A stretch of 62,221 bases of DNA from a virus (Duplodnaviria > Caudoviricetes): the IMG/VR virus record IMGVR_UViG_3300008740_000006, positions 1-62,221 of that record. One strand, written 5' to 3'. Positions 3,470-57,274 of the stretch are shown here, in pieces. Within the stretch, counting starts at the first letter, position 1. The number at the start of each line of letters is the position of its first letter. The translations under genes and the position numbers were made by a program. The notes beneath the pieces were generated by a model. That model saw only the letters and a list, made by a program, of their open reading frames with translations, was not told the DNA's origin and did no database searches.

Positions 3470-3682
3470 TTACGAGGCGACCGCAGTCGCCTCGATGAAG
3501 CTGACCTCTCGGCCAGCAGTGTTGAAAACCTGCTGCCACGCAGCAGTGATCGCGTCTTCGCGCGACTTGCAATCGGCATTGGGGCCGAAGGGAACGGTGA
3601 CCTCGATCACCGGGGGGTGGAGGACGGCACCCAGCGTGCCGCTCTTGTGGTTGTTGCGGAACTTAACGATGACGTTGTTCAT
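3470..3682 (-). CDS. Hypothetical protein (MNNVIVKF...)
   Basis: 3' part of ORF 3470..4132; ATG overlaps the stop of the upstream gene; GGGAG SD. Confidence 0.55.
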   Translation of the reverse strand: MNNVIVKFRNNHKSGTLGAVLHPPVIEVTVPFGPNADCKSREDAITAAWQQVFNTAGREVSFIEATAVAS

Positions 3683-39000: not shown

Positions 39001-42000
39001 CTGGAAGCAGGGCTGAGTCAGATGCGTATATCAAGCAGCAGTCTGAGTTGGCTGGCGGTATCGCGAGGGATACATACAGAAACAGAAGGGAGGGAGAGGG
39101 TCCCTATCCGACCGGGAGGGAGAGGGTTTCGGGACCCGAACTTGGTGATCCCCGTCCGGGGATGCTCCCGCGCTTAAGGAAGGAAGCGACCTGGGAAGAG
39201 AGAGGTCTTACGCAGGAGGAAAAGAAGAAGGCTAGGGACAAGAGCAATGCGATTGCTCGCTCGATCCACAAGGGTTCAAGGATTGCTTACGAAAGGGCGA
39301 AGAACAAGAAGAGGCGAGAGCTTCTCGCTGGCCGCGAGGCTGTCCAGCGGAACTACACCTATGAAAGGGAGGATGGATTCGTTGTCAATGAGACAACAGT
39401 CACAGAGAGTGGTCGCAGGAGTAAGCCTGCAACTCGGGCCTTCTTCTCCGGCACTGATCCCTCAGAGGCAGAGACTCAGAGGCAGTCTTACGAGGCGTCG
39501 AGAGTCGGTGGTGAGTCCTTTGGTGGTGATCTAATTGAGGCGGGTGTCACTGCTGAAAATATAAGGCAGCTTCGCGATGACCCGAAGGGTTTTGCCGAGA
39601 GGCTAAAGCCGGATGGCACGAACGCTCCTCCCGCACAGGAAGAGTTGTTGGACAGGTTGGCGAAGGCGATTGAGAAGGAACTTGCCGGTCGAAACCTGCG
39701 TGGAATAGGTGTCAAGATTGTCAGGGGGATGAAGGGAGCGGAGGCTGGATTCAACAGTGTCACCCGTACTATCTCTCTTAGCCTTGATCCCGGGATGGAG
39801 AATCTAAGTGACAAGGAGATACTAGAAGAGCTTGGTCGAAGGACAGATCATGAACTAATTCATTCCCACAGGAAGTCTGGTTTGATTTCTCCAGGGGAAT
39901 GGAAGGTCTTCGTCAGGTACGCGAGAAAGGTTCCCATCAAGGCGAGTGTCTTGAAGCGGATCAATGATAGAAGGTTGGAGAATGGCCTTGATCCCAAGCC
40001 GGTGAGTACGACGTACTACGACTTGGCCCTTGATACCTATGGTGTGAAGGGAGAAGCTGAGGGCTGGTTCGATGATGACTACAACGAAGAAGCTGTGGCT
40101 TTCATGCGTCAGGATTTCGCAAATGATCCTGCGGCAATCACAGGTAAGCCTGCTGCTTTGTTCAGAAGAACTGCGAGCGTAATTGGGAAGCTCAGAAATG
40201 CACTGAACGGCGCTGGTTACAAATCAGATTCTGAAGTCTTTGAAGTTCTTTGGGGCAAGGAGATGGGTAACCGTCTTGCCGCTGACAAGATGTTGGATAT
40301 CTGGTGGCTCAAGAGACGTAATCAGCCTGAGTACAGAGATCTTGTCCAGTACATTGTACTGGCTCAAGAGGCTGGAGAGCTAGGTGCCGCAGAGAGAGCG
40401 GGTGCGTTGAACCAAGAGGGACTCGCTAGGCTTGAGTTGATTCGGTCAAGGATCGGTGATGCAGTTCTCGATCCGGTAGCTGAGTCCAAGCTGAGAAAGT
40501 ACACGGATCTCTTTGGCAAGAGGAAGAGGATTCCGGTTAGATACACAGATGCTCCCCCCGAAGAAGATGTTGAAGAGGGGGTCGTTGTCGAGGATCAGGG
40601 CACTGGTCGCGCTGCTCTTCGTCGGGAAGACCTTGTTCAAGATGATGGAGTTCAATCAAGGGCTAGGACTGGTGGCGAGTATGGACCCAACGGTGATTGG
40701 TATGCCGGTGGGCAGTGGATAGCTACAACTGAGCTTCCAAAGAGGGAGCGTTCAAAGATAGAGAGGTCTGCCTCAAAGAAAGAGCAGGTTGAGTTCTTTG
40801 AGGGGGGTGTCGAGATTGATCCTGGGAGGATTCCTATCGTTGCTCGTGGTGGTGGAACATGGCTTAAGCCAGATGGAAGATTGAATTATGATTTCATTGA
40901 AAGACAAGGATGGAGTGACCAGAAAATTGCTGAAGCAGAGAGTATGTCTGAGGCGTACCTTCGTGGTGAGCGTTTTGTTGGAGCAGTAGAGCATCCAATT
41001 TTGGCTAGTTTTCAGGATGCATCAAGAATGATTTTGGCAGGGATGAGTGTCCCTGGTGCAATGCTGGACAAATTTTCACCCGATGTTCGTGATAGACTTG
41101 AACGATTAGCTCCACAAGAACTTGGAGTTCCTATTACCGAAGGCACTGGTCGCGCTGCGTTGAGAAGAGATATAACACCAGAGATACAAGAGGCGGCTCG
41201 TCAGGAAACTAGCAGGGGTGCTGATGCTGTAGCGGACAGGATGGATGCGATCTTGCCGGAGGCTGAAAGGCTTACAGATGGTTCGTCTACTTACACTGCG
41301 GGGCAACCGGATGGTGTTCCCTGGACCGATCTTTCTCAGACAGAGTTGAACGAGCGAGGTGCTGGCATCAGAGATGTCGGAGAGCTTAGAGAAGCTCTCG
41401 TTGATATATGGCAGGAGACGCTGAATCGTGTGAGCATCGCAGCGAGGGATGCCGTAGAGGAAACGGGAGCATCGTTCAGTCTTCTTCCAGAAGAAGTGGA
41501 CGCTGCATTCCGCCTCCCCCTTAGCGCACAGCTTTGGTACGAGTTGGGTGGTGAGACGTTTGGACAAAATCTTCCACCCCTGGATAATCGCACTATGGGT
41601 CTTTTCTTTGATCTAATCGGTGCAACTTCTGCGCGGACTGAGCCAAGAGATAATATGTATCGTGCGATTTCGGTTCTTTCTCAGGTTCTAAGGGAAGTTC
41701 CAGTTGATGTAGATCTTGCTATGACTGGTCCCGTTGGGAAGGCTCTCTCTCGCGATGGTGTAGATGTAACTAATTTGGATGGAAACAAGACTGGTCAATT
41801 TAGTGGCACTCTCATGCTTACGTCTGGCATGCCAGTTCCTGTTCCATTCCCTGTAAATGATGTTTGGGTGGGTCGCATTTATGATGTAACAGAGAAGCAG
41901 CTTGCTGATAATCCCAGCTTGCATGAAGTGATGGCAGTTCACCAGACTCTTCTGACAAAGTGGATCAACGAGAACTCACCCCAAAAAATTCCTCACCAAC

Positions 42001-45000
42001 CCTGGCAGACACAGGCTAGAAACTGGGTTCAGTTGCGAACTTCCGATCAAGGTGTTGATACGTCTGGTTCACTTGAGAACATCAGGGGTAATGATTATCG
42101 GTCTGAGTGGGCCAATATGATTCAGCTTCTCAAGTCTGCTGGCGTGGGAGGTATTGATGGACAAAAACTTTCCATCGATGCACTCCTAGACCCCAAGTTG
42201 GTTGACGCACTTCGTCCAACTGTTCCCGTCTTCCGCAAAATTCCGAAGGCGACGGTCGAAGTAGGTACCTTGCTTACGGATACGGGTCGTTCAGCTAGGA
42301 TGCTGTTTGACTTAGCCCAGTCTGTTGGTGACAAGTTGTCGGAGAGGGAGTATCTGGCAACTCTTACAGGTCCGATGTCGGCTTCAGCGAAGGGCAAGCC
42401 AACCCCGTGGGAGGAGTTGGTCCGTGCGATTACTGGTCGCTCCGATAAATTGTCGCGGATTGTTAGTGCAAGAGTTAATGCACCATTCGCAGTAGCTGGA
42501 ACATATGAGGGTGCTGTTGCACCTAACTTGCGAATACCACTTGGTCAGATTCTGGGCGCAGGTGTAGTTCTTACCGATGAGCAGATTGAAATTTTCAATG
42601 CGATTGCTGGTGAGCATTTGTCGCAGGCAGCAATGGCGGCTAGCCATGTAAGGCTTTTGAATGATGGTGAAGCTGTTCCGGAGGGATCGACAAAGGGTTA
42701 CTCAGTTTTCCTGAATGGTGAGATCGAGATGACTGAAGATCTTCTAAGGTCTTTAGATCAAGCATTGCCAGAAGGACATTCTCTTAGTGGATATGAAGTT
42801 CCTGGTGGATATGTCTTAGATGTTAATCCACGCTGGGATGATGATGGTCCGCTGGGAATTTCTCAGGATGAAATAGACGCTGCAATTGTTTCTTCTGGAT
42901 TTGACAAGCTTGGCATTCCTGTTGGAGTTAAGAGACATGCCTATCGGAGTGTGTATACTGAGAATACTGATTACTCTGTAATCAAAGATCGGTTTACAAG
43001 GGGGATTTTTGAAGATGTCATCGAAGAACTACAAAGACTTGGAGTCGGAGAAGAGCAAGCTTCTGCCGCAGCCGTCGCAACGCGAGCAACAGGAGGCGAA
43101 ACAGGATTTGATTTACTCGGGAAAGTTTCGGCTGTCACCAGAGGCAGAGCGAAAACTGTCCTCAAGCGTTACGGGAGGCGCCTTCGTAATCTCGCCCACG
43201 CCGAGGGTGCGATCCAGGGAATCGCGAGAGACGTAGAGAAACGTCAGCAAGTTTATCTTGAGAAAGCTTCAAAGAGGTTAATCAAGGCAGGCCACCTAGA
43301 TGCTAGGCGTGTCCAAACGTCTTCTTTTCGTTCAGCAAGAGATGTTCGGTTGGGACTGCCTGCGCGCAGAACTATTTCAGATCAGCCAATTGATCCTGTT
43401 GCTTCCAAAACATCTGAAACTTTCCCTGGCACAGGTGAGGGGAGAGGTTTTCTCTCCCAACTTCCACCACATCTAAGAGACAAGACTACCGGTTACCCTC
43501 TATCCACTAAAGATACTGGTCGCTCTGCTGTTCGTCGTGGTGATGTTGGAGTGCCAGATTCCTTTAACCAAGTTTTGATTGTTCATGGTCCCTGGGCAGA
43601 AAGAATTCTTAGTGGTGAGAAGACCGTTGAGACTTCTGGTCAATCCCTTAAGGCTGATGGGGCTGCGCCCGGATGGGTTTTACTTCGTGATGACAGTGGT
43701 AGAGCCGATGGTGCTGCGAAGCTTGGTAAGCGAATACTCTACAATACTGAAGAAGAGTTCTTGGAAGACCAAGACAAACATTTGGTTACTAAGGGTGATG
43801 AGTTCTATTTTGGTAACCGTGTTCGTACATATGGATATCCAATTGAAGATGTTATTCGCTTTGATGAGTCGGTAGATATTCCTCCGCTTGGTAGGGATCA
43901 GAGAAGAATAAAGCCTCTCGGCAAGCCTATTGGTAACCCTCTCTCTACTGAAGGCACTGGTCGCGCTGCTGTTAGGCGTGAGCTAATTGGTATTACACCA
44001 GATGATGTTTCTGGAATATCCGATACGACATTCTTTCATGGTACTGATGCTACTGACTTGACCACTATCAGGTCTGGTAGCGAGGGTGGTTCTCTTGGAA
44101 ATGGTATTTATCTAACACCGTATGCTGAAAGGGCGACAGGCTGGGGGAGGAATGTTCTTCCTGCGAGAGTTGACATTAAGAATCCATTGGTTGTTGATAC
44201 ATCAACGGATGATTTTCGTAATCCGGCAGTAGATTTGCTTGTTCAGCTTGGTGTTAGTGAGGATGGTGCGTTTAATATTGTAGAGAAGGAGGAGGAGGAA
44301 TACGGGTATGTTAGGAACAAGATTAGATCGAGAGCAAGGTCGCAGGGCTATGATGGCATAGTTCAATTTGTGGATGGGAATCTTTCTGAGGTTGTTGCGT
44401 TTAACAAGAATCAGGTTTCTATCCAACCCGCTCCACTCGACACCGAAGGCATTGGTCGTGCTGCTGTTCGGCGTGAAGAGATGGGTATCCTTAGCCCGGA
44501 TCAGGCGAGGGCTCAGGCACGCACTGCCTCGTTTGATGAGTTAACAGGCAAGTGGTCTGACGGTGCATTCATTCCTGTTGGTGACTGGGAAAATTCTGAG
44601 TTCTTAGATCTCAGCAAGGGTCTTATTCCTAGTGCGAGAGAGATGAATGAGAAAGGTAAGAAGTTTGGTGATCGCGTTCAGAAGAATCGGGAGTTAGATG
44701 AGAACGGTGGTTGGACTGACAGGAACGGCAGGTACCGTAGGCTTTTGGATGGTACGAAGGCGAGGGTTCGGATAGACATACCCTTCTTTAATGAGACTGG
44801 TAAGTACGTTCAGTCCATTCACGGTGAGGGCTCCAGGCTTCCCGGAATTTCTGTTGGTTATGATTCGGTTGTACGGCTTCGTGGTCCGGTATCGTTTGAA
44901 TCTGATGAGGTAAGGGCGGGGGAGGTTCTGAATGAAGGAGAGTACAAGTCTCCGTTCGCAACAGTAGAGGGGGAGCTTACTCAGGATAGGTCTAGGCCCA

Positions 45001-48000
45001 AGGATATAGACAAATGGACTCCTGTTGGATTCGATCCTCACAAGGGAGTTTACTTCTACGACAAGAAGAACGGTCGTGAGGTTATCGGCGGAACGGATGC
45101 TTACTCAGTAGGCAATACGGTCTATGTCAGAGAGGTTGAGTACGGGAAGAGAAAGCTAAGAGCATCGACTCGCCCGCGTAGAAGTTTTGTTGGTCGTGCT
45201 GCTGTTCGGCGTGAAGAGTCACAGGATTCTGTCCGCAATCCCAGTGATAGAAGATCTCTGAGTATTCCCCCCTGGAAGGAGGCTGAGGCAAAGGAGAGGC
45301 GGCATGATGCTGGTGGCCTTTGGCCTTTCACTTGGGGCTTCATCAAGTTCAATGCTGAAGGTGAGTACAGGAAGGCAGGGAATGGTGTTCCCCTCTTAGT
45401 TCCCTACGGCTCGACTGCCAAGTATGGCGAGAGACACATTGAGTTGCCCAGGGTTCTTCCGAATGGAACCGAGAGGCCGAGTCATGATGAAGAGATTCGC
45501 AACAATACTCCCTACGAAAACTGGAAAGAGTTTATCCAGGGATTTGCAAGGTCTATGGGCCTGCAGCCCAGGGGGCTAAAGGGTGGTGACATTATTCCCC
45601 TTCATCAGCCATTTGATAACAAGATGGTTTTCTTCTGGGATGATGCCGAGTTCAAGAGTCCCGGTGTTGTTGTTATGGAGTACAGGAATGGAGAGGTTGT
45701 TGATGGCGTTGAACTCCCCGATCACTACTCACTGACTACTGCGTTTGTTTCAGAGAGATACGGTGAGAACATGCCTCCTCCCAGTAAGTTTACTGGTCCG
45801 CAGAGAGGCAAGGGTGTTAAGACCAAGTCGGTGATGGTGTTTGAAAACTATCGTCGCCCGGAGGTGGCGGAAGCTTGGTGGAAGACCCAGTCCTCAAAGG
45901 GCAGGTTCGCTGTTGATCGAAGTGCAGCTTACAGTTCAGTTGCTCAGAAGGATGCAGTAGGCAAGCTTGTTCCCCAGGGAGAGCCGAACGCAGATAGCCT
46001 GATCGGTCGCATGATAAAGGCAATCATGTGGCGACAGGAGTACGACATTCCTTGGATCGAAGAAGCGAGAATGCGCTACCTCGATAGGTACGAAAGGATT
46101 TTCACCCAGGGAGTTTCTGCCACAGAGAAGCGCATAGAGAAGATGAGGGCAGATGGAAAGCTTGGACTAACGGTCTACGAGATGGCATCCGTTTCTGCTC
46201 ACGCTATGGCGCTTCTGGTTGATCGGGTCGGATCTCTCACGGAGAACGCGATGCTCTTCGGCATCCCCGTATTCTCCAAGCTTGAGCTACCCGGTGGTCA
46301 CGCATCAGAGGGGTCTGTCTACATAGAAGAGACTGAGCTTGTTAGCGAGACTCGTTCGAACATCCCCGTTTACAATCCAGAGACAGGTTCGATTGAATAC
46401 GGAAAACATGTTGCTCCCAATCCTGATGCTTGGTCTGGAACTGGTGGTATCTGGAAGATACTTGGGACGATTGGTCGCCCTGATGAGAATCGGAGCGTGA
46501 AGACCTTTGCCTTTGGTCGTGCAGTTAGGGCGTACAACAAGCTCAAGTATGAGAATAAGCCGGTCCCGTTTGATGATGAGACAATTCGAGAGGGACTTCA
46601 GATTGGCTGGGAAGATCCAGAGATTGTTGTTGCATGGGAAAACATGCAGAACTGGAACAAGGGAGTGGTCAAGTTCCTTGTTGATACAGAGACAATAACG
46701 AAGGAAGAGGCTGCTGTTTGGGTGGAGCATGCTGACTATCTACCGTTCTATTTGAACCTAGACGGTGAGATGACAGAGGAGATGCAAAGGGTATTCAGGG
46801 ACAAGCTGAACAAGGATTCCTCGTATCGCTTCTTGGATAGTATCCTGCCTACTACTCCTTCCAAGAAGTACAGGGGATTCAGCCAGGGCGAGTTGGTTGA
46901 TCCCATTACTGCCTTGATGAGGAACACGAATGCTCTTTTGACTGCTGGTGTTCAGAACCTTGCAGCAAGAAGGGCTATCCGAGATCAAGAGATTCATGAA
47001 CAGGCTCGCAAGGTGGATGCTCCGACTGCGTCTACGGTGAGTGTTCGCGAGAAGGGCAAGGTGGTTCATTATGAGATTGATGATGAGCCGATGCTTCGCA
47101 CAATGATGGGATCCTTTGATGGTGTTGCCCCGGAAGTTCACGGGTTGATCAAGGCAGCTTCTATTCCAGCAAGAGTTCTCAGGGAGATGGTTACGAGGAT
47201 GCCCGATTTCATGTTTGGAAATACGGGTCGCGATTCAGTCTTTACTTACAATGTTCATGGCACAGACAAGAATCCAGTTAGTGCCTTGTACAGTTCCTAT
47301 TCAATGCTTTTTGAAAGACTGATCAATAGATACAAGGGGGCTAGGACTGGAGATCCAACAAAGGGATTCAGTGAGATCTATTCGATGATCAAGAGAACTG
47401 GAGGTGTTGGCGGTTACGAGATGAGAGATACGGACCTCAACAGTATCCAGCGTAAATTTATGCGTGGCATAAATCAGGAGAAGAATGTAGTAGCTGTGAT
47501 CGGAAAGATGTGGGATGCCCTTGGAGAGGCGAGCAACATTGCTGAGAACATTGCTCGCGAGAAGGTGTTTAGAGATTCCTATGAATCTGCCAAGGCAGAT
47601 TACATTACGATGGGTTTGTCCGAAAAGGATGCAGGCATCCAGGCAATGATGGAGGGTGGGCATCAGGCTGTTGAGGCTTTGAATTTCGGAAGGCACGGAA
47701 ATTCCGAGGGCTTGAAGCTCCTCACATCGGTTGTTCCGTTTACGAACTCACGCATTCAGGGACTAGATGTGTTTGCAAGGAGTGGTATAAGCGGCAGGAA
47801 TATCTTGCGAAAGGATTCGAAGGCTGCTCGCACTGCCCTGGTGAGGCGTGGTCTTTACATTGCTGGGATGAGCATGCTCTACGCGATGATGACCCACGAT
47901 GATGATGACTTTGAAAGACAACCTCTCCATGTAAAGGCTGACAATTGGCTGATCCCGTTGGGTCCGTTCGCTTCCAAGGATGTTAAGTTCCTTGCTATTC

Positions 48001-48785
48001 CGACTCCGTTTGAACCGGGTATTATTTTCAAGTGGTTGCCGGAAAACATTGTTCGTGTTGCAATGGGTCAGACCCTGGATGAATCATTGGACGCTGCGAT
48101 GCATTCCACATTCTCCACGCTGAACTTCAATCCGATACCCCAAGCTGTTAAGCCTATTGCAGAGGCGGCTTTCAACATAAACATGTTTACGATGCAACCG
48201 ATTGTTCCTTTCTATATGGAGGGCGTTAAGACTTCGGAGCAGTATCGAGACACAACTCCTGCTGTTGCGAGGCTTCTCGGCAAGGCGGAAGTGGTGAGTC
48301 CCCTCACTATCGAGAACACGCTTCGTGGTTACTTTGGTTCCGTTGCAACGTATGCATTCTTTGCATCGGACTGGATTCTCCACCGTCCAGCCTTTGGCTT
48401 CACTACAAAGCCAACATCTCTTATGAGTCAGAAGCCTTTCTTCAGAAGGTTCCTCAAGAGTGGGCTTGGTACGAAGGATGCTGATTCTTTCTACGAGGTC
48501 AGGGGCAAGATCAATGAGGTAGTTCAAACTGTTAACATCCTCAAAGAGAGAGATCCCGGCAGAGCCCTCAAGTATGAGATGGAGAATGCAAATGTCTTGG
48601 TCTTCAAGGACATGGTCCGAGATATTGATAAGTCCTTGAGCGAGCTTCGCTCGCAGGAAAGGATGATCAGGCGAAGTGGTATGTCTGATGACGAGATGAG
48701 AGACGCCCTATGGAACCTGAACAACATGCGCGCCTCGCTGATGAGTATGTCTCCAGCAATGCGTAGGCAGATTAACAGTTGGTAA
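36024..48785 (+). CDS. Giant polyvalent virion protein: SLT transglycosylase, zincin metallopeptidase, glycosylase-like, ASCH, ART-PolyVal-like, PBECR-like and LPD38-like domains
   Basis: ESNF...GLFQL...AAYNAGPGAV...ETEDYV; HELIH at 39849; PWAERILSGEKTVE; FHGT...GIYLT...GYDGI; GERHI...H...TTAF; NFGRHG...PFTNSRIQG...IPTPFE. Confidence 0.85.
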   Translation: MIRSMAGRYTSSELEGFLSSATDLYGNPLSSGSISGANREDLLRYLEEESRKRGINPALAASMMEQESNFDPSIASRVNEDREGEYRAAGLFQLAPETARELGVSNPLDVRESIRGGLTYIDRLLTKYGDDPILAVAAYNAGPGAVDKYGGIPPYQETEDYVRRVTGSFEDSQGNTINRYEENMRRFGVPLPGEEEAPVDEVARAEPVEEEAEDTYELILPDGSFMNVPIGIDKEEARESAREAYPMAFRGEVSEEEESNMLDAGLSALYRSVYGIPIGASYVGALFGDDQEAFDLTSERLHGISKTAHGFAPGLTTLDDVSRAYEDEGVLDAAAKFIEFSGEKIGESLGFMLPSIVSGAALGWLGALAGSVIAPGVGTVVGGLTGRALGAVVGRTMGFLGTQVFNYLSMNIERGVENGQVSVDDYNLINQTMAAGTQAGLDGLLVLMAGGKVALGVGTEIATTAGRQAITRGGAQGLSKGGIEAVRNSFAQTMAGLEALSPVKRMGAVMLEESVAELGQQAIERGAAGLEVSPASKEARDEYLEVLLSTIGPSFAFGGIGGVSAKWSQTKQKRAEEGLVKSYEDRALVVNNQVKSAEEAEANELERVAGEAAEAGRIPLEASLLAAPTAADIHTIAKDRNINSEDAGFHQFSRRTVGKEHLDDMNAAELKQVYDKLASMPVQDARISFSVANNQDAIDVASRIRSNSSKKSGAIPLSDTDSQIRTAIQQTGKLNFKNVDKKVVDETVAAYRRAMVNLRLVEKKDGKLRLVRTRPTTSSALTEVEYDKVVDFINLEGRFPNPEEFGSITGIRNEEFYELAIQDAVNRNDIKLDKDGYVPVEPTSQREERFFLRVNGVTEDKSYRTEAQANEARGERIRSFEESAAARTREELAARGRGILPSRLTAPAEELAPSVEVVSADTPLLSSPKADLVTEYEYSVEESPQWVVRDDTAGSEPVGNYDNEEQARKKAKQLGDQKSWVVRDSNGVVVNTSGSRAESDAYIKQQSELAGGIARDTYRNRREGEGPYPTGRERVSGPELGDPRPGMLPRLRKEATWEERGLTQEEKKKARDKSNAIARSIHKGSRIAYERAKNKKRRELLAGREAVQRNYTYEREDGFVVNETTVTESGRRSKPATRAFFSGTDPSEAETQRQSYEASRVGGESFGGDLIEAGVTAENIRQLRDDPKGFAERLKPDGTNAPPAQEELLDRLAKAIEKELAGRNLRGIGVKIVRGMKGAEAGFNSVTRTISLSLDPGMENLSDKEILEELGRRTDHELIHSHRKSGLISPGEWKVFVRYARKVPIKASVLKRINDRRLENGLDPKPVSTTYYDLALDTYGVKGEAEGWFDDDYNEEAVAFMRQDFANDPAAITGKPAALFRRTASVIGKLRNALNGAGYKSDSEVFEVLWGKEMGNRLAADKMLDIWWLKRRNQPEYRDLVQYIVLAQEAGELGAAERAGALNQEGLARLELIRSRIGDAVLDPVAESKLRKYTDLFGKRKRIPVRYTDAPPEEDVEEGVVVEDQGTGRAALRREDLVQDDGVQSRARTGGEYGPNGDWYAGGQWIATTELPKRERSKIERSASKKEQVEFFEGGVEIDPGRIPIVARGGGTWLKPDGRLNYDFIERQGWSDQKIAEAESMSEAYLRGERFVGAVEHPILASFQDASRMILAGMSVPGAMLDKFSPDVRDRLERLAPQELGVPITEGTGRAALRRDITPEIQEAARQETSRGADAVADRMDAILPEAERLTDGSSTYTAGQPDGVPWTDLSQTELNERGAGIRDVGELREALVDIWQETLNRVSIAARDAVEETGASFSLLPEEVDAAFRLPLSAQLWYELGGETFGQNLPPLDNRTMGLFFDLIGATSARTEPRDNMYRAISVLSQVLREVPVDVDLAMTGPVGKALSRDGVDVTNLDGNKTGQFSGTLMLTSGMPVPVPFPVNDVWVGRIYDVTEKQLADNPSLHEVMAVHQTLLTKWINENSPQKIPHQPWQTQARNWVQLRTSDQGVDTSGSLENIRGNDYRSEWANMIQLLKSAGVGGIDGQKLSIDALLDPKLVDALRPTVPVFRKIPKATVEVGTLLTDTGRSARMLFDLAQSVGDKLSEREYLATLTGPMSASAKGKPTPWEELVRAITGRSDKLSRIVSARVNAPFAVAGTYEGAVAPNLRIPLGQILGAGVVLTDEQIEIFNAIAGEHLSQAAMAASHVRLLNDGEAVPEGSTKGYSVFLNGEIEMTEDLLRSLDQALPEGHSLSGYEVPGGYVLDVNPRWDDDGPLGISQDEIDAAIVSSGFDKLGIPVGVKRHAYRSVYTENTDYSVIKDRFTRGIFEDVIEELQRLGVGEEQASAAAVATRATGGETGFDLLGKVSAVTRGRAKTVLKRYGRRLRNLAHAEGAIQGIARDVEKRQQVYLEKASKRLIKAGHLDARRVQTSSFRSARDVRLGLPARRTISDQPIDPVASKTSETFPGTGEGRGFLSQLPPHLRDKTTGYPLSTKDTGRSAVRRGDVGVPDSFNQVLIVHGPWAERILSGEKTVETSGQSLKADGAAPGWVLLRDDSGRADGAAKLGKRILYNTEEEFLEDQDKHLVTKGDEFYFGNRVRTYGYPIEDVIRFDESVDIPPLGRDQRRIKPLGKPIGNPLSTEGTGRAAVRRELIGITPDDVSGISDTTFFHGTDATDLTTIRSGSEGGSLGNGIYLTPYAERATGWGRNVLPARVDIKNPLVVDTSTDDFRNPAVDLLVQLGVSEDGAFNIVEKEEEEYGYVRNKIRSRARSQGYDGIVQFVDGNLSEVVAFNKNQVSIQPAPLDTEGIGRAAVRREEMGILSPDQARAQARTASFDELTGKWSDGAFIPVGDWENSEFLDLSKGLIPSAREMNEKGKKFGDRVQKNRELDENGGWTDRNGRYRRLLDGTKARVRIDIPFFNETGKYVQSIHGEGSRLPGISVGYDSVVRLRGPVSFESDEVRAGEVLNEGEYKSPFATVEGELTQDRSRPKDIDKWTPVGFDPHKGVYFYDKKNGREVIGGTDAYSVGNTVYVREVEYGKRKLRASTRPRRSFVGRAAVRREESQDSVRNPSDRRSLSIPPWKEAEAKERRHDAGGLWPFTWGFIKFNAEGEYRKAGNGVPLLVPYGSTAKYGERHIELPRVLPNGTERPSHDEEIRNNTPYENWKEFIQGFARSMGLQPRGLKGGDIIPLHQPFDNKMVFFWDDAEFKSPGVVVMEYRNGEVVDGVELPDHYSLTTAFVSERYGENMPPPSKFTGPQRGKGVKTKSVMVFENYRRPEVAEAWWKTQSSKGRFAVDRSAAYSSVAQKDAVGKLVPQGEPNADSLIGRMIKAIMWRQEYDIPWIEEARMRYLDRYERIFTQGVSATEKRIEKMRADGKLGLTVYEMASVSAHAMALLVDRVGSLTENAMLFGIPVFSKLELPGGHASEGSVYIEETELVSETRSNIPVYNPETGSIEYGKHVAPNPDAWSGTGGIWKILGTIGRPDENRSVKTFAFGRAVRAYNKLKYENKPVPFDDETIREGLQIGWEDPEIVVAWENMQNWNKGVVKFLVDTETITKEEAAVWVEHADYLPFYLNLDGEMTEEMQRVFRDKLNKDSSYRFLDSILPTTPSKKYRGFSQGELVDPITALMRNTNALLTAGVQNLAARRAIRDQEIHEQARKVDAPTASTVSVREKGKVVHYEIDDEPMLRTMMGSFDGVAPEVHGLIKAASIPARVLREMVTRMPDFMFGNTGRDSVFTYNVHGTDKNPVSALYSSYSMLFERLINRYKGARTGDPTKGFSEIYSMIKRTGGVGGYEMRDTDLNSIQRKFMRGINQEKNVVAVIGKMWDALGEASNIAENIAREKVFRDSYESAKADYITMGLSEKDAGIQAMMEGGHQAVEALNFGRHGNSEGLKLLTSVVPFTNSRIQGLDVFARSGISGRNILRKDSKAARTALVRRGLYIAGMSMLYAMMTHDDDDFERQPLHVKADNWLIPLGPFASKDVKFLAIPTPFEPGIIFKWLPENIVRVAMGQTLDESLDAAMHSTFSTLNFNPIPQAVKPIAEAAFNINMFTMQPIVPFYMEGVKTSEQYRDTTPAVARLLGKAEVVSPLTIENTLRGYFGSVATYAFFASDWILHRPAFGFTTKPTSLMSQKPFFRRFLKSGLGTKDADSFYEVRGKINEVVQTVNILKERDPGRALKYEMENANVLVFKDMVRDIDKSLSELRSQERMIRRSGMSDDEMRDALWNLNNMRASLMSMSPAMRRQINSW

Positions 48786-50764: not shown

Positions 50765-51301
50765 CTAGTTACTTCTTGTAGAAGGCGACCATTGCCTTCT
50801 GTGTAGAAGTGACGATCCAAGCAGGAATCGTCTCTTGACGGTGAATGGAGGTAACCAAACCTCTCCCGTGAAGTGCATCTTGTTACCAGGGAATGCAGCA
50901 ATTCTACGCGGACCATCTTGCGGTCTGTCAACATCGGGTTCGGTGTAGTAGTCCCAGTCCAGAACGACAAGTTTGCGCGTACCCTCCACTTCGATGCCGA
51001 CAACTTCTGCACCAGCATTCAACTTCGCCGTGGGTCTCTCGGACACCTTGAACGGATGAGAAGCTATCCACAGCAAGCTACCAGCCTCTGTTCTAGAGTC
51101 ACACTTCGGCCACCGCAGTTCACACATAGCCATTGCCCATTCGTACAAATTGCCTACTCCCTGTTCCAACGGTACGCCTCGCTCGCGATTACACTTGTGC
51201 CGCGTGCGAGGCTTCGCCGCCGCCTTCTCCTTGCGTCTTTTGCCAGAGTGAATCGGCAAGTCTTCAGGCGCGAACGATTCAGTCGATGTAGCGCGGATCA
51301 T
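50765..51301 (-). CDS. Hypothetical protein
   Basis: ATGA overlap with the HTH gene stop; 3' end uncertain. Confidence 0.45.
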   Translation of the reverse strand: MIRATSTESFAPEDLPIHSGKRRKEKAAAKPRTRHKCNRERGVPLEQGVGNLYEWAMAMCELRWPKCDSRTEAGSLLWIASHPFKVSERPTAKLNAGAEVVGIEVEGTRKLVVLDWDYYTEPDVDRPQDGPRRIAAFPGNKMHFTGEVWLPPFTVKRRFLLGSSLLHRRQWSPSTRSN

Positions 51302-51534
51302 CGGAGCCTTACCCTCCCACCTGTTGCTTTGGAGATCTTCCTGCATGTTTCTGGGGAGAACGCATGGCTCAACTTGCGCCTTTCTTCGTCACCATCAAGT
51401 TGTATCAGGGAAGGATTCTCATCTGCTTCTTGGCGGCGAACGATCCGGCTTATGAGTGATTGAGACAGACCGGCCAGCCTCGCGAAATTGTTTTGCGAGA
51501 TCTTCTTTTCACGCAAGTAGTCGTTGAGCTTCAT
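51298..51534 (-). CDS. Cro-like HTH transcriptional regulator
   Basis: MKLNDYL...ISQNNFARLAGLSQSLISRI...KATGGRV. Confidence 0.8.
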   Translation of the reverse strand: MKLNDYLREKKISQNNFARLAGLSQSLISRIVRRQEADENPSLIQLDGDEERRKLSHAFSPETCRKISKATGGRVRLR

Positions 51535-51540
51535 CGGATT

Positions 51541-51951
51541 CTAATCTTCGGATCGAAGCTTCCATACATGCAAGAGCCTTGCGTGATTCGTAGTTCGTTT
51601 CGACTTGCGAAACTCTCCGGTCGGTATGAACTCGCGAGTCTTGAACAGCGAACCCGCTGCTGGCCCAAGAGACTTGATGCCGTATCGATGCTGCAAGACT
51701 CTGCCCACATCATCTGCGGTGGCTGATCCTTTCTGCAGGCAGATCTCGTAAGCGATCCCCCTGGCTAGATCGAGCGACCGGACCTTGGACTTGGCGGCGA
51801 CCAGCATGCCATTCTTCTTTCTGTCCTCAGACTCTTTCTTGTCAAACAAGTTCAGAGGAAACTGTACCGGACCATCTTCTCTCATGTAGTACTCCCTTGC
51901 CAAGTTACCAAATGGCTTCGCATCTAATTGGAATTTGGGTACGTCTCCCAC
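51541..51951 (-). CDS. Hypothetical, winged-helix-like phage protein
   Basis: TADDV...AAGSLF...S.R..NHAR...VW; start uncertain. Confidence 0.6.
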   Translation of the reverse strand: MGDVPKFQLDAKPFGNLAREYYMREDGPVQFPLNLFDKKESEDRKKNGMLVAAKSKVRSLDLARGIAYEICLQKGSATADDVGRVLQHRYGIKSLGPAAGSLFKTREFIPTGEFRKSKRTTNHARLLHVWKLRSED

Positions 51952-52391
51952 TCACCCCAGGGCCACGGGCTTGCGCCCTTTCCATCCCAAGCCACACCCC
52001 AACCTTCCCGTATCAGAATGTCTTTGACGAGATCAAGACGCTGACCTCCTCGGATCACCTCTACGTCGGCCAGCACGATGGTGGGCTCGATCACCAGGGC
52101 CCGGGCCAGGGCAACCCGCAGCATCTCGCCACCCGAGTCGGGGTTTTTATGGGTCGTAATCTTGACCTCTTTGAATTGTCCGTTGCTGTCGCGGAGCAGT
52201 CGATCCACAAACTCTGTGCAAGTTCTTCCGTGGTGAGCCCACTCGCCGCGCGGCTCCGGGCAGTTAACACCGGCCAATCGCAGCCAGACTCGGTGAGTGA
52301 TTCGGAAACCCAGATCTAAGTCTACGATCATCGTGTCACCATCGACCACTCGGGTTGGCGTCGCGAGATACTTGTACTCAAAGCTATTCAT
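51924..52391 (-). CDS. Thermonuclease (SNase-like) with foreign 24-aa segment
   Basis: RVVDGDT...DLGF...RLAGVNCPE; the expected D.YGR motif is replaced by SGGEMLRVALARALVIEPTIVLAD. Confidence 0.8.
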   Translation of the reverse strand: MNSFEYKYLATPTRVVDGDTMIVDLDLGFRITHRVWLRLAGVNCPEPRGEWAHHGRTCTEFVDRLLRDSNGQFKEVKITTHKNPDSGGEMLRVALARALVIEPTIVLADVEVIRGGQRLDLVKDILIREGWGVAWDGKGASPWPWGEWETYPNSN

Positions 52392-52419
52392 TCACATTCC
52401 CCCACATCCGCTCCTTGTT

Positions 52420-52456
52420 GCCCCGTTCTCGTACCACCGGGCGGGGCCACCCCGGT
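52420..52456 (-). ncRNA. H-type pseudoknot repeat, copy C
   Basis: ACCGGG-GUG-GCCCCG-CCCGGU-GGUACGAGAA-CGGGGC followed by AACAAGGAG. Confidence 0.65.
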
Positions 52457-52585
52457 CCAACAGGAACTCTGCAACGAATCCCTTGGTACTTCTATTTCGT
52501 CCGCGTGTGTCCAGCGTTAATTTTTTGGGATGAGGCACTCGTTCACCGTAAGGTTAGAACCCTCCCTCATCCCCTTTGTGCTTAT

Positions 52586-52909
52586 TTAGAATTCTTCATC
52601 CTCTGATGCTGCATCAAATGCATCGCTGTTTGCGGCTACCGGATCTTCCCGTCTTTGTTCTGGTTCAAAGGTCACGAAGGTGTACTGGTTGCCTTGCTTG
52701 GAGGTTCGCTCCCAGGATGCACACCTCATCTTGACAACGTCCTCATCGGTTTCTTTTGCTGCCTCTACGATCTTCCTGAGTGCAAGCTTTGAGATCTCGA
52801 CCGGACCTGTCTTCGACGGATGCTTGTCGCTCTTCTTGTACTTGTTGGGATAGAGCCAGAGCTTTCCCTTTTCATCCTGAGTTGCGTAAGTTCCGTTTCC
52901 GTTTGCCAT
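52586..52909 (-). CDS. Single-stranded DNA-binding-like protein
   Basis: LYPNKYKKSDKHP..TG...ASWERTSKQG..Y; acidic tail ending EDEEF; follows the SSAP gene. Confidence 0.65.
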   Translation of the reverse strand: MANGNGTYATQDEKGKLWLYPNKYKKSDKHPSKTGPVEISKLALRKIVEAAKETDEDVVKMRCASWERTSKQGNQYTFVTFEPEQRREDPVAANSDAFDAASEDEEF

Positions 52910-52931
52910 TCTGCTCTCCTTGATTGTTGGT

Positions 52932-53639
52932 CTACGCCTGTGCATCAGGCAGTTGTTGAAGCTCTTTCTTTCTGTTTGAAAAAGCTTGCATCGTGATCTT
53001 GTGCGCCTCGGGATCTTCCTTCTCCATCTTCTTGATGACTTCCTTGTTGGATCGATACAGGTCCCTGAGTTCCTCAAGGTTCTTCGCACCGCTGGCGAAT
53101 ACATCCAGGGTCATTGCCACCTTGTTCTCCGGTACCTTCCCGTTCCCCTTTGGCCCATCCTTACCAGACTTCTTTGGAGACTTCTTCTTAGTTGTCTTGG
53201 TCGCACTAGACTTGGGCTTGGTTACTTCGGATGTCTCGGCGGGTACGTCATCGAAGTTCTTCTGGTACAGGTTGATGCCCAGTCCCCACATCGCACAAGT
53301 CTTAACCAGTGCGCGCTGCTTGCAGTCATTGATTGCTCGGGCATCGGGATTGATGATTGCGTTGTGCCGATAGTCCATGACTGGAAGATGACAAGATCGG
53401 GTGTGCAAGTTGATCTCAACGAAGCAATGAACCTCTGCGCTCCCGTCATTGAAGTAGTACACACCACCATTGTCATGATGGTGGTACCAGTAGCGAGCTT
53501 GTGGGTACTTGCTTTGCAACAAGATCCAAGCTGCACCCCATGCCAAGTAATCAAGTCCAGCCCTCGGCTCGACCCACTTTGAAACATCAACTGCTGTCAG
53601 TGTTTCCCAGATCTCTTTCGGTCCATGATCTTCAGACAT
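52932..53639 (-). CDS. Sak/Rad52-like single-strand annealing protein (DUF1071-like)
   Basis: LDYLAWGAAW...LPVMDYRHNAI...INDCKQRALVKTCAMWGLGINLY. Confidence 0.85.
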   Translation of the reverse strand: MSEDHGPKEIWETLTAVDVSKWVEPRAGLDYLAWGAAWILLQSKYPQARYWYHHHDNGGVYYFNDGSAEVHCFVEINLHTRSCHLPVMDYRHNAIINPDARAINDCKQRALVKTCAMWGLGINLYQKNFDDVPAETSEVTKPKSSATKTTKKKSPKKSGKDGPKGNGKVPENKVAMTLDVFASGAKNLEELRDLYRSNKEVIKKMEKEDPEAHKITMQAFSNRKKELQQLPDAQA

Positions 53640-53658: not shown

Positions 53659-53994
53659 CTAATGCTCGATCCAGTACCACGCTTTCGCTTTGTTGCCAGC
53701 GGCAGCCTTGTACGCTTCCTCGGCAGATTTGCTCACCTCCGAAAGCTCGTCACGCCAGATTTTCCTGCAGATGCCGTCGCGCGGCTTGAGCCTGGAGATC
53801 ACGAAAGTGATCTCGGGGTCTGTGACTCCCGGGACTGATCGGTGGTAGTCCTTGTGCCACTCTTCGGTCTCGTTGTAGATGCCTTCCGAGCAGCAAAAAA
53901 ACTCCCCTGACTTGTCTAGGTAGTTGCGGGTGTGGGGGTTCAGCGTGAGTTTGACTGCGACTATTCCATCTGCTCGCTTTCGATATGCCTTCAT
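53659..53994 (-). CDS. Hypothetical protein
   Basis: 111 aa, GGGAG SD, ATGA overlap. Confidence 0.65.
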   Translation of the reverse strand: MKAYRKRADGIVAVKLTLNPHTRNYLDKSGEFFCCSEGIYNETEEWHKDYHRSVPGVTDPEITFVISRLKPRDGICRKIWRDELSEVSKSAEEAYKAAAGNKAKAWYWIEH

Positions 53995-54863
53995 TGGCTA
54001 TCTCCCTTTTCTCTGGCCCATTGTGGGCAGAAACTTGAAACACCGCAGTAGTTCCCTTCGCAGCGAGTGTTGATGGCTGGCCTTTCGTGAACGTAGAGAT
54101 TCACGCGAGAGCTTTTTCTGGTTTGCTCATCGACATATTGGTTCGCCTCGTCCCTGGTACTGCAAACTTTCTTGGCCCTCGTTGCTGAGCTTGAATGGAC
54201 TGCGAATTTTCCGGGTTGCTGCCACTGCTCTTCCGGCCAGCACTCAGAGTTCTCATTCAGGTGGGCTCCGATTCTTCCATGCAGGTAAGACACAATTGCA
54301 TGTTCGGACCACATGATGATTGGCATCCTGACAACGGGAGCCTTGGGGTAGTTGGCATACCTCTTCAGGTTGGCTCGCGACCAGTCCCGCAGGATCGCAA
54401 TGACCTCAAGCTTCGCAACCTTTCTCTCGTTGGCGCGAAGTAACTGGGCGTAGCAATTCAACTGCTCGATCCATTCCCGTTTCCCGGTTGGGTTGAATTG
54501 AATCGCTGAGGTTGAACAGGTCTTCCAGTCGGTTATGATTGCACCTTCGTCTGTTGGAGACTGGAGATCGATTTGACCACTGATCTTCATCCCGTCCATC
54601 TCCATGTGGAGACGCTCTTCAACGATGGACTCTTCCCCGGCACCTTGTCGCAAGATCTCGTGAACTGCTGTTCCGAGGATGGACATAACATTGTCGGAGA
54701 TGTCTTCGCTGAGTTCGTCAGCGTATTCGGTTCTGAGTCTGTGAATCTGGGGACTGTCAATCAGGGAAGTGACAGTGATGTCTGCACCCTCGGAGTCGTG
54801 TGGATTTCTTTCCGAGAAACGTGTGAAGGCTTCAGGAAGATGGTACTTGTTTGTTAGTTTCAT
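53991..54863 (-). CDS. PD-(D/E)XK exonuclease (Cas4/RecB-like)
   Basis: GTAVH...VEER...ISGQID...DWK...QLNCY; C-terminal RC..YC.V..FC Cys cluster. Confidence 0.85.
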   Translation of the reverse strand: MKLTNKYHLPEAFTRFSERNPHDSEGADITVTSLIDSPQIHRLRTEYADELSEDISDNVMSILGTAVHEILRQGAGEESIVEERLHMEMDGMKISGQIDLQSPTDEGAIITDWKTCSTSAIQFNPTGKREWIEQLNCYAQLLRANERKVAKLEVIAILRDWSRANLKRYANYPKAPVVRMPIIMWSEHAIVSYLHGRIGAHLNENSECWPEEQWQQPGKFAVHSSSATRAKKVCSTRDEANQYVDEQTRKSSRVNLYVHERPAINTRCEGNYCGVSSFCPQWAREKGDSQ

Positions 54864-54893
54864 TCGTTGTCTCCCCTTCGGTGTTAGCACATT

Positions 54894-55346
54894 ATGGTAC
54901 AGCATGATGAAGGCAAAGCAAGTAACGAGGGTGTCTTTGAGTGCATGATTCTCGGTGAACCTGCGAGTGCAAAGAACCAACGCAGAATTGTTCAGGTTGG
55001 TGGTAAGCCCAGGTTGATCAAGTCCAAGAAAGCTTTGGACTACGCAAAAAGTTTTGAGGCCCAGTGCCCTGTCTTGCCGGAACTCATCACAACAGATGTC
55101 TCATTAAGGCTCGACGTTTGGTACGGATCGAGGCGTCCAGATCTAAGTGCGTGCGATCTCATCATGGATTTACTTCAGGGACATGTGTATAAGAATGACC
55201 GCCAAGTCAAAGCAACGATGTCTATTTGGAATCTTGATCGGGAAAATCCAAGATGTTTGATAAGGGTGATGAGCCTGGATTACGAATGCTTGTCAGGTCT
55301 ATCGTCATTGGAGCCCTCAAAGATCTGGGGTCTGGATCAGATTTAG
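54894..55346 (+). CDS. rusA: RusA-like Holliday junction resolvase
   Basis: GEPASAKN...RRPDL...IMDLLQG.VYKNDRQV...ENPR. Confidence 0.85.
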   Translation: MVQHDEGKASNEGVFECMILGEPASAKNQRRIVQVGGKPRLIKSKKALDYAKSFEAQCPVLPELITTDVSLRLDVWYGSRRPDLSACDLIMDLLQGHVYKNDRQVKATMSIWNLDRENPRCLIRVMSLDYECLSGLSSLEPSKIWGLDQI

Positions 55347-55522: not shown

Positions 55523-57274
55523 ATGCCACAAACACAGGAGAAAGATGTGGATATAAGTTACGGCATCAAAGATGCTGTTATGTCTTTGGGTCTGTCGCCC
55601 GGAGTACAGACAAGAATCCAGTGCCCAGAGTGCAGCGAACACAGGAGAAAGAGTCGGGAGAAAACGCTGTCACTGAAGGTCGAGTCTGATCATGCTTTGT
55701 ACCAATGTTATCACTGCAACATATCTGGTCGTGTACATCTTGATTCAGTTGCTTCTCGTAGCAATGGATTGAATGGGACAAACATTGCGAAGAGAGAGAT
55801 CCCTGAAACTGTCGAGCTAGATGAGTCACATCTTGAATGGTTTGGAACCAGGGCAATCAACCAAGAGACACTCTCTCGCTGTGGTGTCGTGGCGAGTGAT
55901 GTCTATCTGAAGACGAGGGGCAAGAAGATCAGTTGTGTTGGATTCCCATACAAGAATCCAGATGGAACGATTGCTGCCATAAAGTTTCGGGATTCGATGA
56001 AGAACTTTTCCCAGGTTGGATCGGCCAACAGCCTGTGGAGGATCGAACAATTTACTGGTGGTGATCTTGTTGTTTGCGAGGGAGAGTTGGACAGTCTTTC
56101 CTACGAGCAGGTTGGAATCTTCTCAACCTCTGTTCCCAATGGCGCACCTTCTGGAACACCTTCTCGGAAGACAGGGAAGTATGACTATCTTTGGGAGGGC
56201 AGGGATGCCCTGGCAAATGCTGACAGGATTCTCATTGCAACTGACAATGATGGACCCGGTCACTTGCTTGCAGAAGAGATTGTCAGGAGATTGGGCAGGG
56301 GAAAGTGTTGGCGTGTTGAGTTTCCAAGTGGCTGCAAAGATGCATCAGACGTTTTAACTAAGTTCGGAGAGGATGCGCTAAGAGAGACAATTGAGAGGGC
56401 TACTCCGTGGCCCGTTATTGGCATTCGTGATGCGTCCGAGTTCCGAGAACGAGCGGTCAAGTTGTACGAGGGCGGCATGGATCGCGGCGTTTCGATGGGG
56501 ATGCCAGCCCTCGACAGGATCTTCCGGGTTACACCACAACAACTCACTGTTGTGACGGGTGTCCCAGGCTCTGGCAAAAGTACGTTCCTGACGTTCCTGA
56601 GTGTCCAGCTTGCGAGGCTCGGCTGGCGATCCGTTGCAATCTCTTTCGAGACACCTACCGAGATACACGTTCTTCAGTTGGCATCTTGTTACTTGGGCAA
56701 ACCCTTCAGGGGTCCGAACAAGATGAGTAAAGAAGAACTGGATACTGGTTTGGACTGGGTTCAAAACAACTTCACCTTCCTGTCGGAGTCGGACACAAGC
56801 ATAAGTTCTGTACTTGATCGAGCAGCAATCTCGATCATGCGTCACGGTGCAAGGTTCCTGACGATTGACCCGTTCAATTTTCTAACCCTGAATGATTCTT
56901 CTGATAACTCCGTTTCTCAGATCAATCAGTGCCTGACCAGCCTGAAGAACTTTGCAGTTGAGCATGACGTAAGCGTGGCACTCGTTGCTCATCCGGTGAA
57001 GATCTTTCGAGGGCCGGATGGACGAATGCCGCAGCTTGACCTGTACTCAATCTCTGGAAGTTCTGGCTTTGCGAATACGTCAGACTCAGGTCTTGTTGTT
57101 TCAAGGGGTGAACAACTAGGTGAGAGCTATGTCGAGTGCGTGAAGTCAAGATACTCGTGGCTCGGTTCTCTTGGTGGGACAGTGTTGGAACTTGAATCTG
57201 AGACAGGGGTATTCACGGCACCGTTGTTGGGTGGGGGCAATGACCAAGAGGCTTTCGATTTCGATGATTTCTGA
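55523..57274 (+). CDS. Bifunctional primase-helicase (T7 gp4/Twinkle-like)
   Basis: Zn finger CPEC...CYHC; TOPRIM VCEGELD, TDNDGPG, KDASD; Walker A TGVPGSGKS; IDP, VAHP. Confidence 0.93.
   Translation: MPQTQEKDVDISYGIKDAVMSLGLSPGVQTRIQCPECSEHRRKSREKTLSLKVESDHALYQCYHCNISGRVHLDSVASRSNGLNGTNIAKREIPETVELDESHLEWFGTRAINQETLSRCGVVASDVYLKTRGKKISCVGFPYKNPDGTIAAIKFRDSMKNFSQVGSANSLWRIEQFTGGDLVVCEGELDSLSYEQVGIFSTSVPNGAPSGTPSRKTGKYDYLWEGRDALANADRILIATDNDGPGHLLAEEIVRRLGRGKCWRVEFPSGCKDASDVLTKFGEDALRETIERATPWPVIGIRDASEFRERAVKLYEGGMDRGVSMGMPALDRIFRVTPQQLTVVTGVPGSGKSTFLTFLSVQLARLGWRSVAISFETPTEIHVLQLASCYLGKPFRGPNKMSKEELDTGLDWVQNNFTFLSESDTSISSVLDRAAISIMRHGARFLTIDPFNFLTLNDSSDNSVSQINQCLTSLKNFAVEHDVSVALVAHPVKIFRGPDGRMPQLDLYSISGSSGFANTSDSGLVVSRGEQLGESYVECVKSRYSWLGSLGGTVLELESETGVFTAPLLGGGNDQEAFDFDDF

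Follow-up and report, generated by a model that had tools for sequence, protein, structure and literature searches.

How did a piece that reads like part of an ABC ATPase come to lie in the middle of a phage nuclease gene, and what did it do to the nuclease? The question is raised by IMGVR_UViG_3300008740_000006, a marine phage record of 62221 bp with a CheckV completeness of 100%. The window analysed here is this whole record, and all positions refer to it. We consider it very probable that the segment, called the patch below, is a real and recent capture of a sub-genic piece of cellular DNA, which was acquired by microhomology and probably crippled the nuclease.

The nuclease gene and its neighbourhood

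The gene that carries the patch (51924-52391, minus strand) is an ORF of 155 aa belonging to the SNase-like (thermonuclease) family. The N-terminal half of the protein contains the family motifs of the staphylococcal nucleases, VDGDT...R...NCPE, and PHROGs assigned the gene to the endonuclease phrog_452 (E 8.4e-15), with a match limited to residues 2-85. The residues V16, D17, G18, D19, T20, R38, P45 and E46, which occupy invariant or nearly invariant columns, are all present. In the S. aureus nuclease, the DGDT residues, the Arg before x-P-E and the Glu of P-E have metal-ligand or catalytic roles.

On its upstream side the nuclease gene is adjoined by genes of a Sak-type single-strand annealing protein (52935-53639, minus strand) and of a PD-(D/E)XK exonuclease (53994-54980, minus strand). 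The former matched PF06378 (E 3.4e-24; 85.6 bits with a cut-off of 22.3; residues 10-151 aligned to positions 2-144 of the 152 in the profile) and phrog_8492 (E 8e-31), the latter the exonuclease phrog_2139 (E 1e-29) and PF12705 (E 5.6e-9), in agreement with an initial annotation made from the sequence, which had credited the phage with a Sak-like annealase and an exonuclease. Downstream of the nuclease gene there is a Cro/C1-type HTH regulator (51301-51534, minus strand; PF01381, E 3e-6), and beyond the exonuclease, on the opposite strand, a primase/helicase (55523-57271, plus strand; phrog_239, E 2.4e-79). These neighbours place the nuclease gene within a replication/recombination module.

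Between the nuclease and Sak genes lies a 172-aa ORF (52586-53104, minus strand) with an acidic C-terminal tail ending in DEEF. PHROG and Pfam searches found no match for this ORF, which may, from its resemblance, be SSB-like or gp2.5-like. Elsewhere in the window there is a single ORF of 4253 aa (36024-48785, plus strand), of which residues 39-176 are lytic transglycosylase- or endolysin-like (phrog_669, E 1e-21) and the C-terminus matches phrog_9854, a family of unknown function (E 6e-32). Our guess is that this ORF may encode a giant virion or ejection protein.

A foreign segment in the nuclease

Read on the minus strand, 52065-52136 (72 bp) gives 24 in-frame codons, SGGEMLRVALARALVIEPTIVLAD, which correspond to residues 86-109 of the nuclease and are flanked by HKNPD and VEV; translation thus confirmed what had been noticed at the outset. 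When a 30-aa piece containing the patch was compared with the PDB, 254 sequences were found at E<=10. The best 60 of these 254 matches were ABC ATPases throughout, nearly all of them aligning query positions 4-27 to the region extending from the signature motif to Walker B, and in these 60 the alignment of SGGE...IVLAD places a signature motif and a Walker-B strand ending in Asp in the nuclease. The sole Pfam match of the whole nuclease was ABC_tran (PF00005; E 0.0032; residues 72-109 aligned to positions 96-133 of the 137 in the profile), with 18.5 bits, below the gathering cut-off of 25, whereas Pfam SNase (PF00565) did not match the patched protein at E<=10. In NCBIfam the whole nuclease matched 11 families, every one of them an ABC ATPase family and none a nuclease family. 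The patch makes family models label the nuclease as ABC-like, so annotation of such a gene can mislead.

When residues 78-117 were searched against a word index of 5.8 billion proteins, 34 proteins were found, the query and 33 others, and ABC_tran was present in all 33. The metagenomic ABC ATPase P0036 (248 aa) is identical to the patch in 24/24 residues, P0045 in 23/24. In an alignment of 16 members of this LolD/FtsE/MacB-like family, which we regard as the donor family, LSGGEMLRVALARALVIEP and LAD are invariant and 3 of the 24 positions vary; the complete match of P0036 rests on these three positions (T-I-V), the other 21 being invariant in the family.

The codons of the patch differ from those of the phage. 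Twenty-two of the 24 end in G or C, where the codon usage of the phage itself would lead one to expect 11.7 (P about 6e-6); the initial annotation had remarked on this in writing of almost only G/C-ending codons. In the remainder of the nuclease gene the count is 79 of 131. The GC content of the patch is 0.72, that of the whole phage 0.515. In a crude set of ORFs two places reach 22/24 G/C-ending codons, the patch and 3581-3682 (minus strand), the latter of which may be a spurious antisense frame. A scan of the remainder of the phage for ABC-like stretches found none besides the patch. The PDB and Pfam matches, the identity with P0036 and the foreign codon usage support the view that the patch is foreign DNA derived from an ABC ATPase gene, and with it the earlier proposal that the phage had captured cellular DNA.

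The nuclease family at the patch site

The ABC-like appearance could also have arisen by convergence in an insertion loop native to this nuclease lineage. The two sequences have some similarity of this kind: S-F-G-R-W-L of the nucleases and S-G-G-E-M-L of the ABC ATPases share S, G and L at equal spacing, and both are followed by LAD. Such a loop would, however, be expected neither to be identical to a cellular ABC ATPase in all 24 residues nor to depart in its codons from the usage of the phage, and the nuclease family speaks against it as well. In an alignment of 35 family members the insert columns contain residues only in the nuclease of this phage (P0001) and in P0029, a 99%-identical variant (H81N) found on an ENA contig, which is patched too. 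The other 33 read D-S/K-F/Y-G-R-W-L-A at the patch site, so that the comparison with the closest SNases, a check proposed in the initial annotation, found the segment native to none of them. These 33 all keep the Arg, for which P0001 and P0029 have Glu (Glu89 in P0001). The profile of the nuclease family matched staphylococcal nuclease in the PDB (E 4e-15), with dkfGrwla aligned to DKYGRGLAY, a segment which holds the catalytic Arg87 (S. aureus numbering). That the patch stands in place of the SNase motif, including its Arg, had been stated correctly from the sequence. The native-loop reading is refuted by the unpatched allele described in the next section, and we regard it as vanishingly improbable.

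An unpatched homologue, P0002, is detected by the Pfam SNase profile (24.6 bits with a cut-off of 21). The exact patched protein occurs on 4 contigs, which come from JGI/IMG, Logan and ENA. A scan of viral contigs with the nuclease alignment gave 30 loci, none of them close, the best segments being at most 61% identical and mostly N-terminal. In the GenBank phage collection 49 records were found, all of them below 60% identity and below 80% coverage of the query.

Alleles and junctions in public metagenomes

Part of 51700-52600 is contained in 20 public runs, which belong to 13 studies and are marine throughout. Four of the 20 (X1, X3, X5 and X7) were compared, all as Logan contigs rather than raw reads; for X3, X5 and X7 the interpretation was confined to the parts that contigs cover. 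In X1, the possible source sample, a contig of 22151 nt (record 1) has 0 differences over the whole compared stretch, including the patch and both junctions. X3 is a second sample of the same study; its contig (record 9, 418 nt), which is shallow (depth 3.2), covers 51935-52352 with 0 differences and thus has the patched allele with both junctions in a second sample. The contig from X7, a run of a different study (record 24, 247 nt), is also shallow (depth 2.2). It matches 51925-52074 and 52134-52214 with 0 differences and lacks the patch: in place of 52075-52133 it has 11 other letters, which, read on the minus strand in the frame of the gene, restore the family motif DSFGRWLAD (...NPDSFGRWLADV...). 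The X7 allele is the ancestral, unpatched form. From this allele, with its identical flanks, we can tell that 59 nt took the place of 11 nt (net +48 nt, +16 aa), and the 0 differences over 231 flanking bases between patched and unpatched alleles argue for a recent event.

Comparison of the two alleles also defines the extent of the new DNA. The segment of 72 bp described in the initial annotation is real, but only 59 nt of it (52075-52133, minus strand) are new, its outer 3 and 10 bases being common to both alleles. The 10-base junction (52065-52074, minus strand) consists, in both phage alleles, of the last base (G) of a Val/Trp codon and the Leu-Ala-Asp codons; the LAD microhomology had been suggested before, and the LAD codons are indeed common to the patched and unpatched forms. 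The 3-base junction (52134-52136, minus strand) is a Ser codon in both phage alleles and matches the Ser of the ABC signature LSGG. The 11 replaced bases are the codons for F-G-R and most of that for W in DSFGRWLAD. At the junction sites the donor family proteins read LSGG... and ...VLADE; the shared length on the donor side is deduced from these proteins, the phage alleles and the junction positions being observed in contigs. At both junctions the phage gene and the donor gene agree in codon phase, which explains why the frame was preserved, and selection need not be invoked.

The initial annotation had named an assembly chimera as the alternative to capture, and the contig data allow this to be judged. 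A piece of an abundant ABC gene could have been stitched into the phage contig during assembly or library preparation, and many ABC-gene contigs of the same samples do align to 52064-52137, with less than 90% likeness, raising the summed depth. An assembler would nevertheless have had to pass through only 3 and 10 shared bases, in our judgement too short a path for word-based assembly, and the co-occurring ABC contigs all have less than 95% likeness to the patch. Mapping across the junctions, performed here on Logan contigs, found both of them bridged in X1 and X3 with 0 differences. Two samples have contigs that bridge the junctions, 4 contigs from three sources encode the exact patched protein, and the 99%-identical variant haplotype is patched too; we therefore reject the chimera, which we consider extremely improbable.

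The stretch 52064-52137 has a further property. Many contigs of unrelated ABC ATPase genes from the same metagenomes align to it; they are 80-90% alike here, have loose ends at either side and inflate the summed depth several-fold. We considered the rise in depth over 52072-52133 as a signal of the phage and rejected it, because it comes from the ABC genes of other organisms. As the patch attracts unrelated ABC-gene contigs, host linking based on coverage or similarity would be misled at this locus.

A third form of the locus was found in X5, a hydrothermal vent metagenome from a third study. Its contig (record 17, 255 nt, depth 5.3) runs directly from position 51894 to 52413, and both flanks have 0 differences. 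The segment missing across this join (51895-52412, 518 nt) holds the whole nuclease gene, so at least one relative can do without it. A direct repeat of 5 bases, CCTTG, marks the two ends of the indel (51895-51899 and 52413-52417), which looks like a second microhomology event at the nuclease locus. By our own reading, the CCTTG repeats fall, on the coding strand, in ribosome-binding-site-like sequences that precede the nuclease gene and the next one.

Donor family and host

In a phylogenetic tree the donor family groups as a clade of its own with support of 98/89 (26 rows), apart from the LolD/MacB-like ATPases of many phyla. Among its members are L032, a MAG whose title gives Deltaproteobacteria and to which the tree tool assigned the label Myxococcota, and two further genomes of the order of L032; L032 is the only named member. 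It was also the only donor-family member found in a scan of genome contigs, with 67% identity (21/24 aa and 51/72 nt in the patch). An orthologue of P0036 (E<=1e-70) was present in 2 of 401 genomes sampled from the phylum of L032 and, within its order, in 5 of 193; identity reached 66% at best. Assignment of the donor to the Myxococcota is biased and weak, because the lineage of L032 was the only one searched.

The initial annotation had suggested that the patch may identify the host, and had proposed comparing the 72 bp with co-occurring contigs. This expectation was not borne out. In the runs X1, X3, X5 and X7 no donor DNA was found, the phage's own records being the only ones with at least 95% likeness, and among 251 SGGxxxR stretches in the fetched loci the best 72-nt identity was 55/72. 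In JGI metagenome contigs the matches listed were dominated by DEPTGSLD, a generic pattern; GGEMLRVA occurred in none of their 80 loci, of which the best had 51% identity to P0036. Viral contigs contained 0 matches to a degenerate DNA pattern for GGEMLRVALARALVIEP. As the GC content of the phage (0.515) is far below that of the patch (0.72), the donor need not be the usual host.

A real patch could conceivably have reached this phage by way of another phage, a plasmid or a prophage-borne ABC gene, or have been picked up in a dead-end host, in which case it would tell us nothing about the usual host. The difference in GC content and the lack of a donor in the samples containing the phage are in line with this. 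On the other hand, donor-family members were found on contigs as long as 141 kb and within MAGs of 5.3-7.3 Mb, the motif search in viral contigs gave no copies, and the phage has no further ABC-like stretch. On balance we think a relay or a dead-end host unlikely, and we retain direct capture from a cellular gene as the preferred reading.

Proposed mechanism of capture

In the mechanism that we favour, a bacterium of high GC content would have supplied the template, a gene for a LolD/MacB-like ABC ATPase, from which 59 bases were copied in frame out of the region extending from the signature through the following helix to Walker B. The event would be a microhomology-mediated illegitimate recombination, and could have taken one of two routes: the 10-base match may have primed a template switch, or a single-stranded host fragment may have annealed. 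The annealase and the exonuclease encoded next to the nuclease may have helped the capture, a suggestion prompted by their adjacency.

The literature on phage recombinases gives some measure of the lengths involved. According to De Paepe et al. (PMC3945230), Sak is a member of the Rad52-like recombinases and ~30 bp is the minimum for Red-beta recombination; according to Martinsohn et al. (PMC2327257), RecET recombines at 5-13 bp with a frequency of about 1e-8, in rare illegitimate events. The lengths of the junctions are far under the ~30 bp of Red-beta (PMC3945230) and within the 5-13 bp range reported for RecET (PMC2327257).

A bolder version would be that annealase/exonuclease pairs carry out a natural 'oligo recombineering', and that the product was retained here as a nuclease-dead decoy for ABC-type ATPases. 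If this were true, pasting of short single-stranded pieces of host genes at codon-phase microhomologies would be a routine source of sub-domain protein chimeras, and an SNase scaffold showing an ABC signature helix and a Walker-B strand would act as a decoy for transporters or for ABC-like defence ATPases. We consider this combination very unlikely and prefer the simpler illegitimate event.

Probable consequences for the nuclease

The AlphaFold2 model of the patched protein has a mean pLDDT of 75.7; the blocks of the SNase core reach 86-93, residues 81-100 about 52. Residues 91-98 are modelled as a helix, and residues 105-114 as a strand that continues the SNase sheet. In a Foldseek search of the PDB the top matches were staphylococcal nuclease (E 1.6e-5, TM 0.54-0.62), thus the model has the OB-type fold of the SNases. 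By its fold and N-terminal motifs the product of the patched gene is a member of the SNase family, one that lacks the Arg and falls below the Pfam threshold.

In the patched allele Glu stands in place of the invariant Arg, and 16 residues, modelled as a helix and a loop, are added beside the active site. These two changes, as read from the sequence, suggest that the patched nuclease is probably dead or crippled, as the initial annotation had thought probable. A crippled nuclease could be tolerated, given that the gene is dispensable, as indicated by the relative in X5 that lacks all of it.

Could the patch be adaptive instead, a nuclease-fold scaffold whose ABC signature helix and Walker-B strand interfere with an ABC-type ATPase or mimic it? 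The frame remains open, the SNase core is retained in the model, which has a helix at 91-98, and the patched allele has been found in two or more haplotypes and in two or more samples. This distribution is compatible with a null allele and can also fit retained function. Against adaptation, the in-phase microhomologies account by themselves for the preserved frame, the confidence of the model is low over the patch, the Walker A motif, Q-loop and H-loop are all absent, and the gene is dispensable in the X5 relative. An adaptive role of the patch seems highly improbable to us, and loss or impairment of the nuclease remains our preferred interpretation.

Comparison with known systems

The patched protein shares with staphylococcal nuclease (PF00565; phrog_452) the N-terminal VDGDT...R...NCPE motifs and the OB-like fold. 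It differs in that the Arg of D-x-[FY]-G-R-x-L-A is replaced by Glu, 16 residues are inserted, and there is no Pfam SNase match. With the LolD/FtsE/MacB-type ABC ATPases (PF00005) of the LSGGEMLRVALARALVIEP clade it has in common 24 residues, from the signature through the Walker-B Asp, which are identical to those of P0036. In contrast to these enzymes, it contains this 24-residue fragment only: the Walker A motif (G-x4-G-K-[ST]) was looked for in the 155-aa nuclease and is absent, as are the Q-loop, D-loop and H-loop, and the Glu that follows the Walker-B Asp in the donors (LADE) is Val in the phage nuclease. Judging from this motif content, the patched nuclease is not an ABC ATPase.

Eukaryotic microhomology-mediated end joining yields templated (filler) insertions. 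The event described here resembles these in combining an 11-nt deletion with a 59-nt templated insertion bounded by microhomology, and differs from them in its phage/bacterial setting without polymerase theta.

Illegitimate recombination as a source of phage mosaicism is usually inferred from old, blurred junctions. Here, alleles from before and after the event, with identical flanks, were found in the ocean, and the junctions, the sizes and the donor gene family can be read directly. They show that phage genes can take up pieces of host DNA smaller than a domain, and the patched locus offers a concrete substrate for testing capture by the Sak annealase and the PD-(D/E)XK exonuclease. Among the titles listed in a literature search there was none on a short in-frame host-gene patch inside a phage gene.

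Another parallel is the phage mosaicism studied by Martinsohn et al. (2008, PMC2327257) and De Paepe et al. (2014, PMC3945230), in which foreign DNA is likewise joined at very short identities in a phage that encodes a Rad52-like (Sak) recombinase and an exonuclease. The exchanges described in these studies are gene- or module-sized, take place between phages and prophages, and involve flanking homology. By comparison, here a 59-nt in-frame patch lies inside a gene, it comes from a cellular gene of housekeeping type, and both alleles are observed. What took place here is a variant, at small scale, of the illegitimate recombination that has long been put forward for phage mosaicism; it is unusual in being sub-genic, in frame and from a cellular gene, with the alleles before and after the event both documented.
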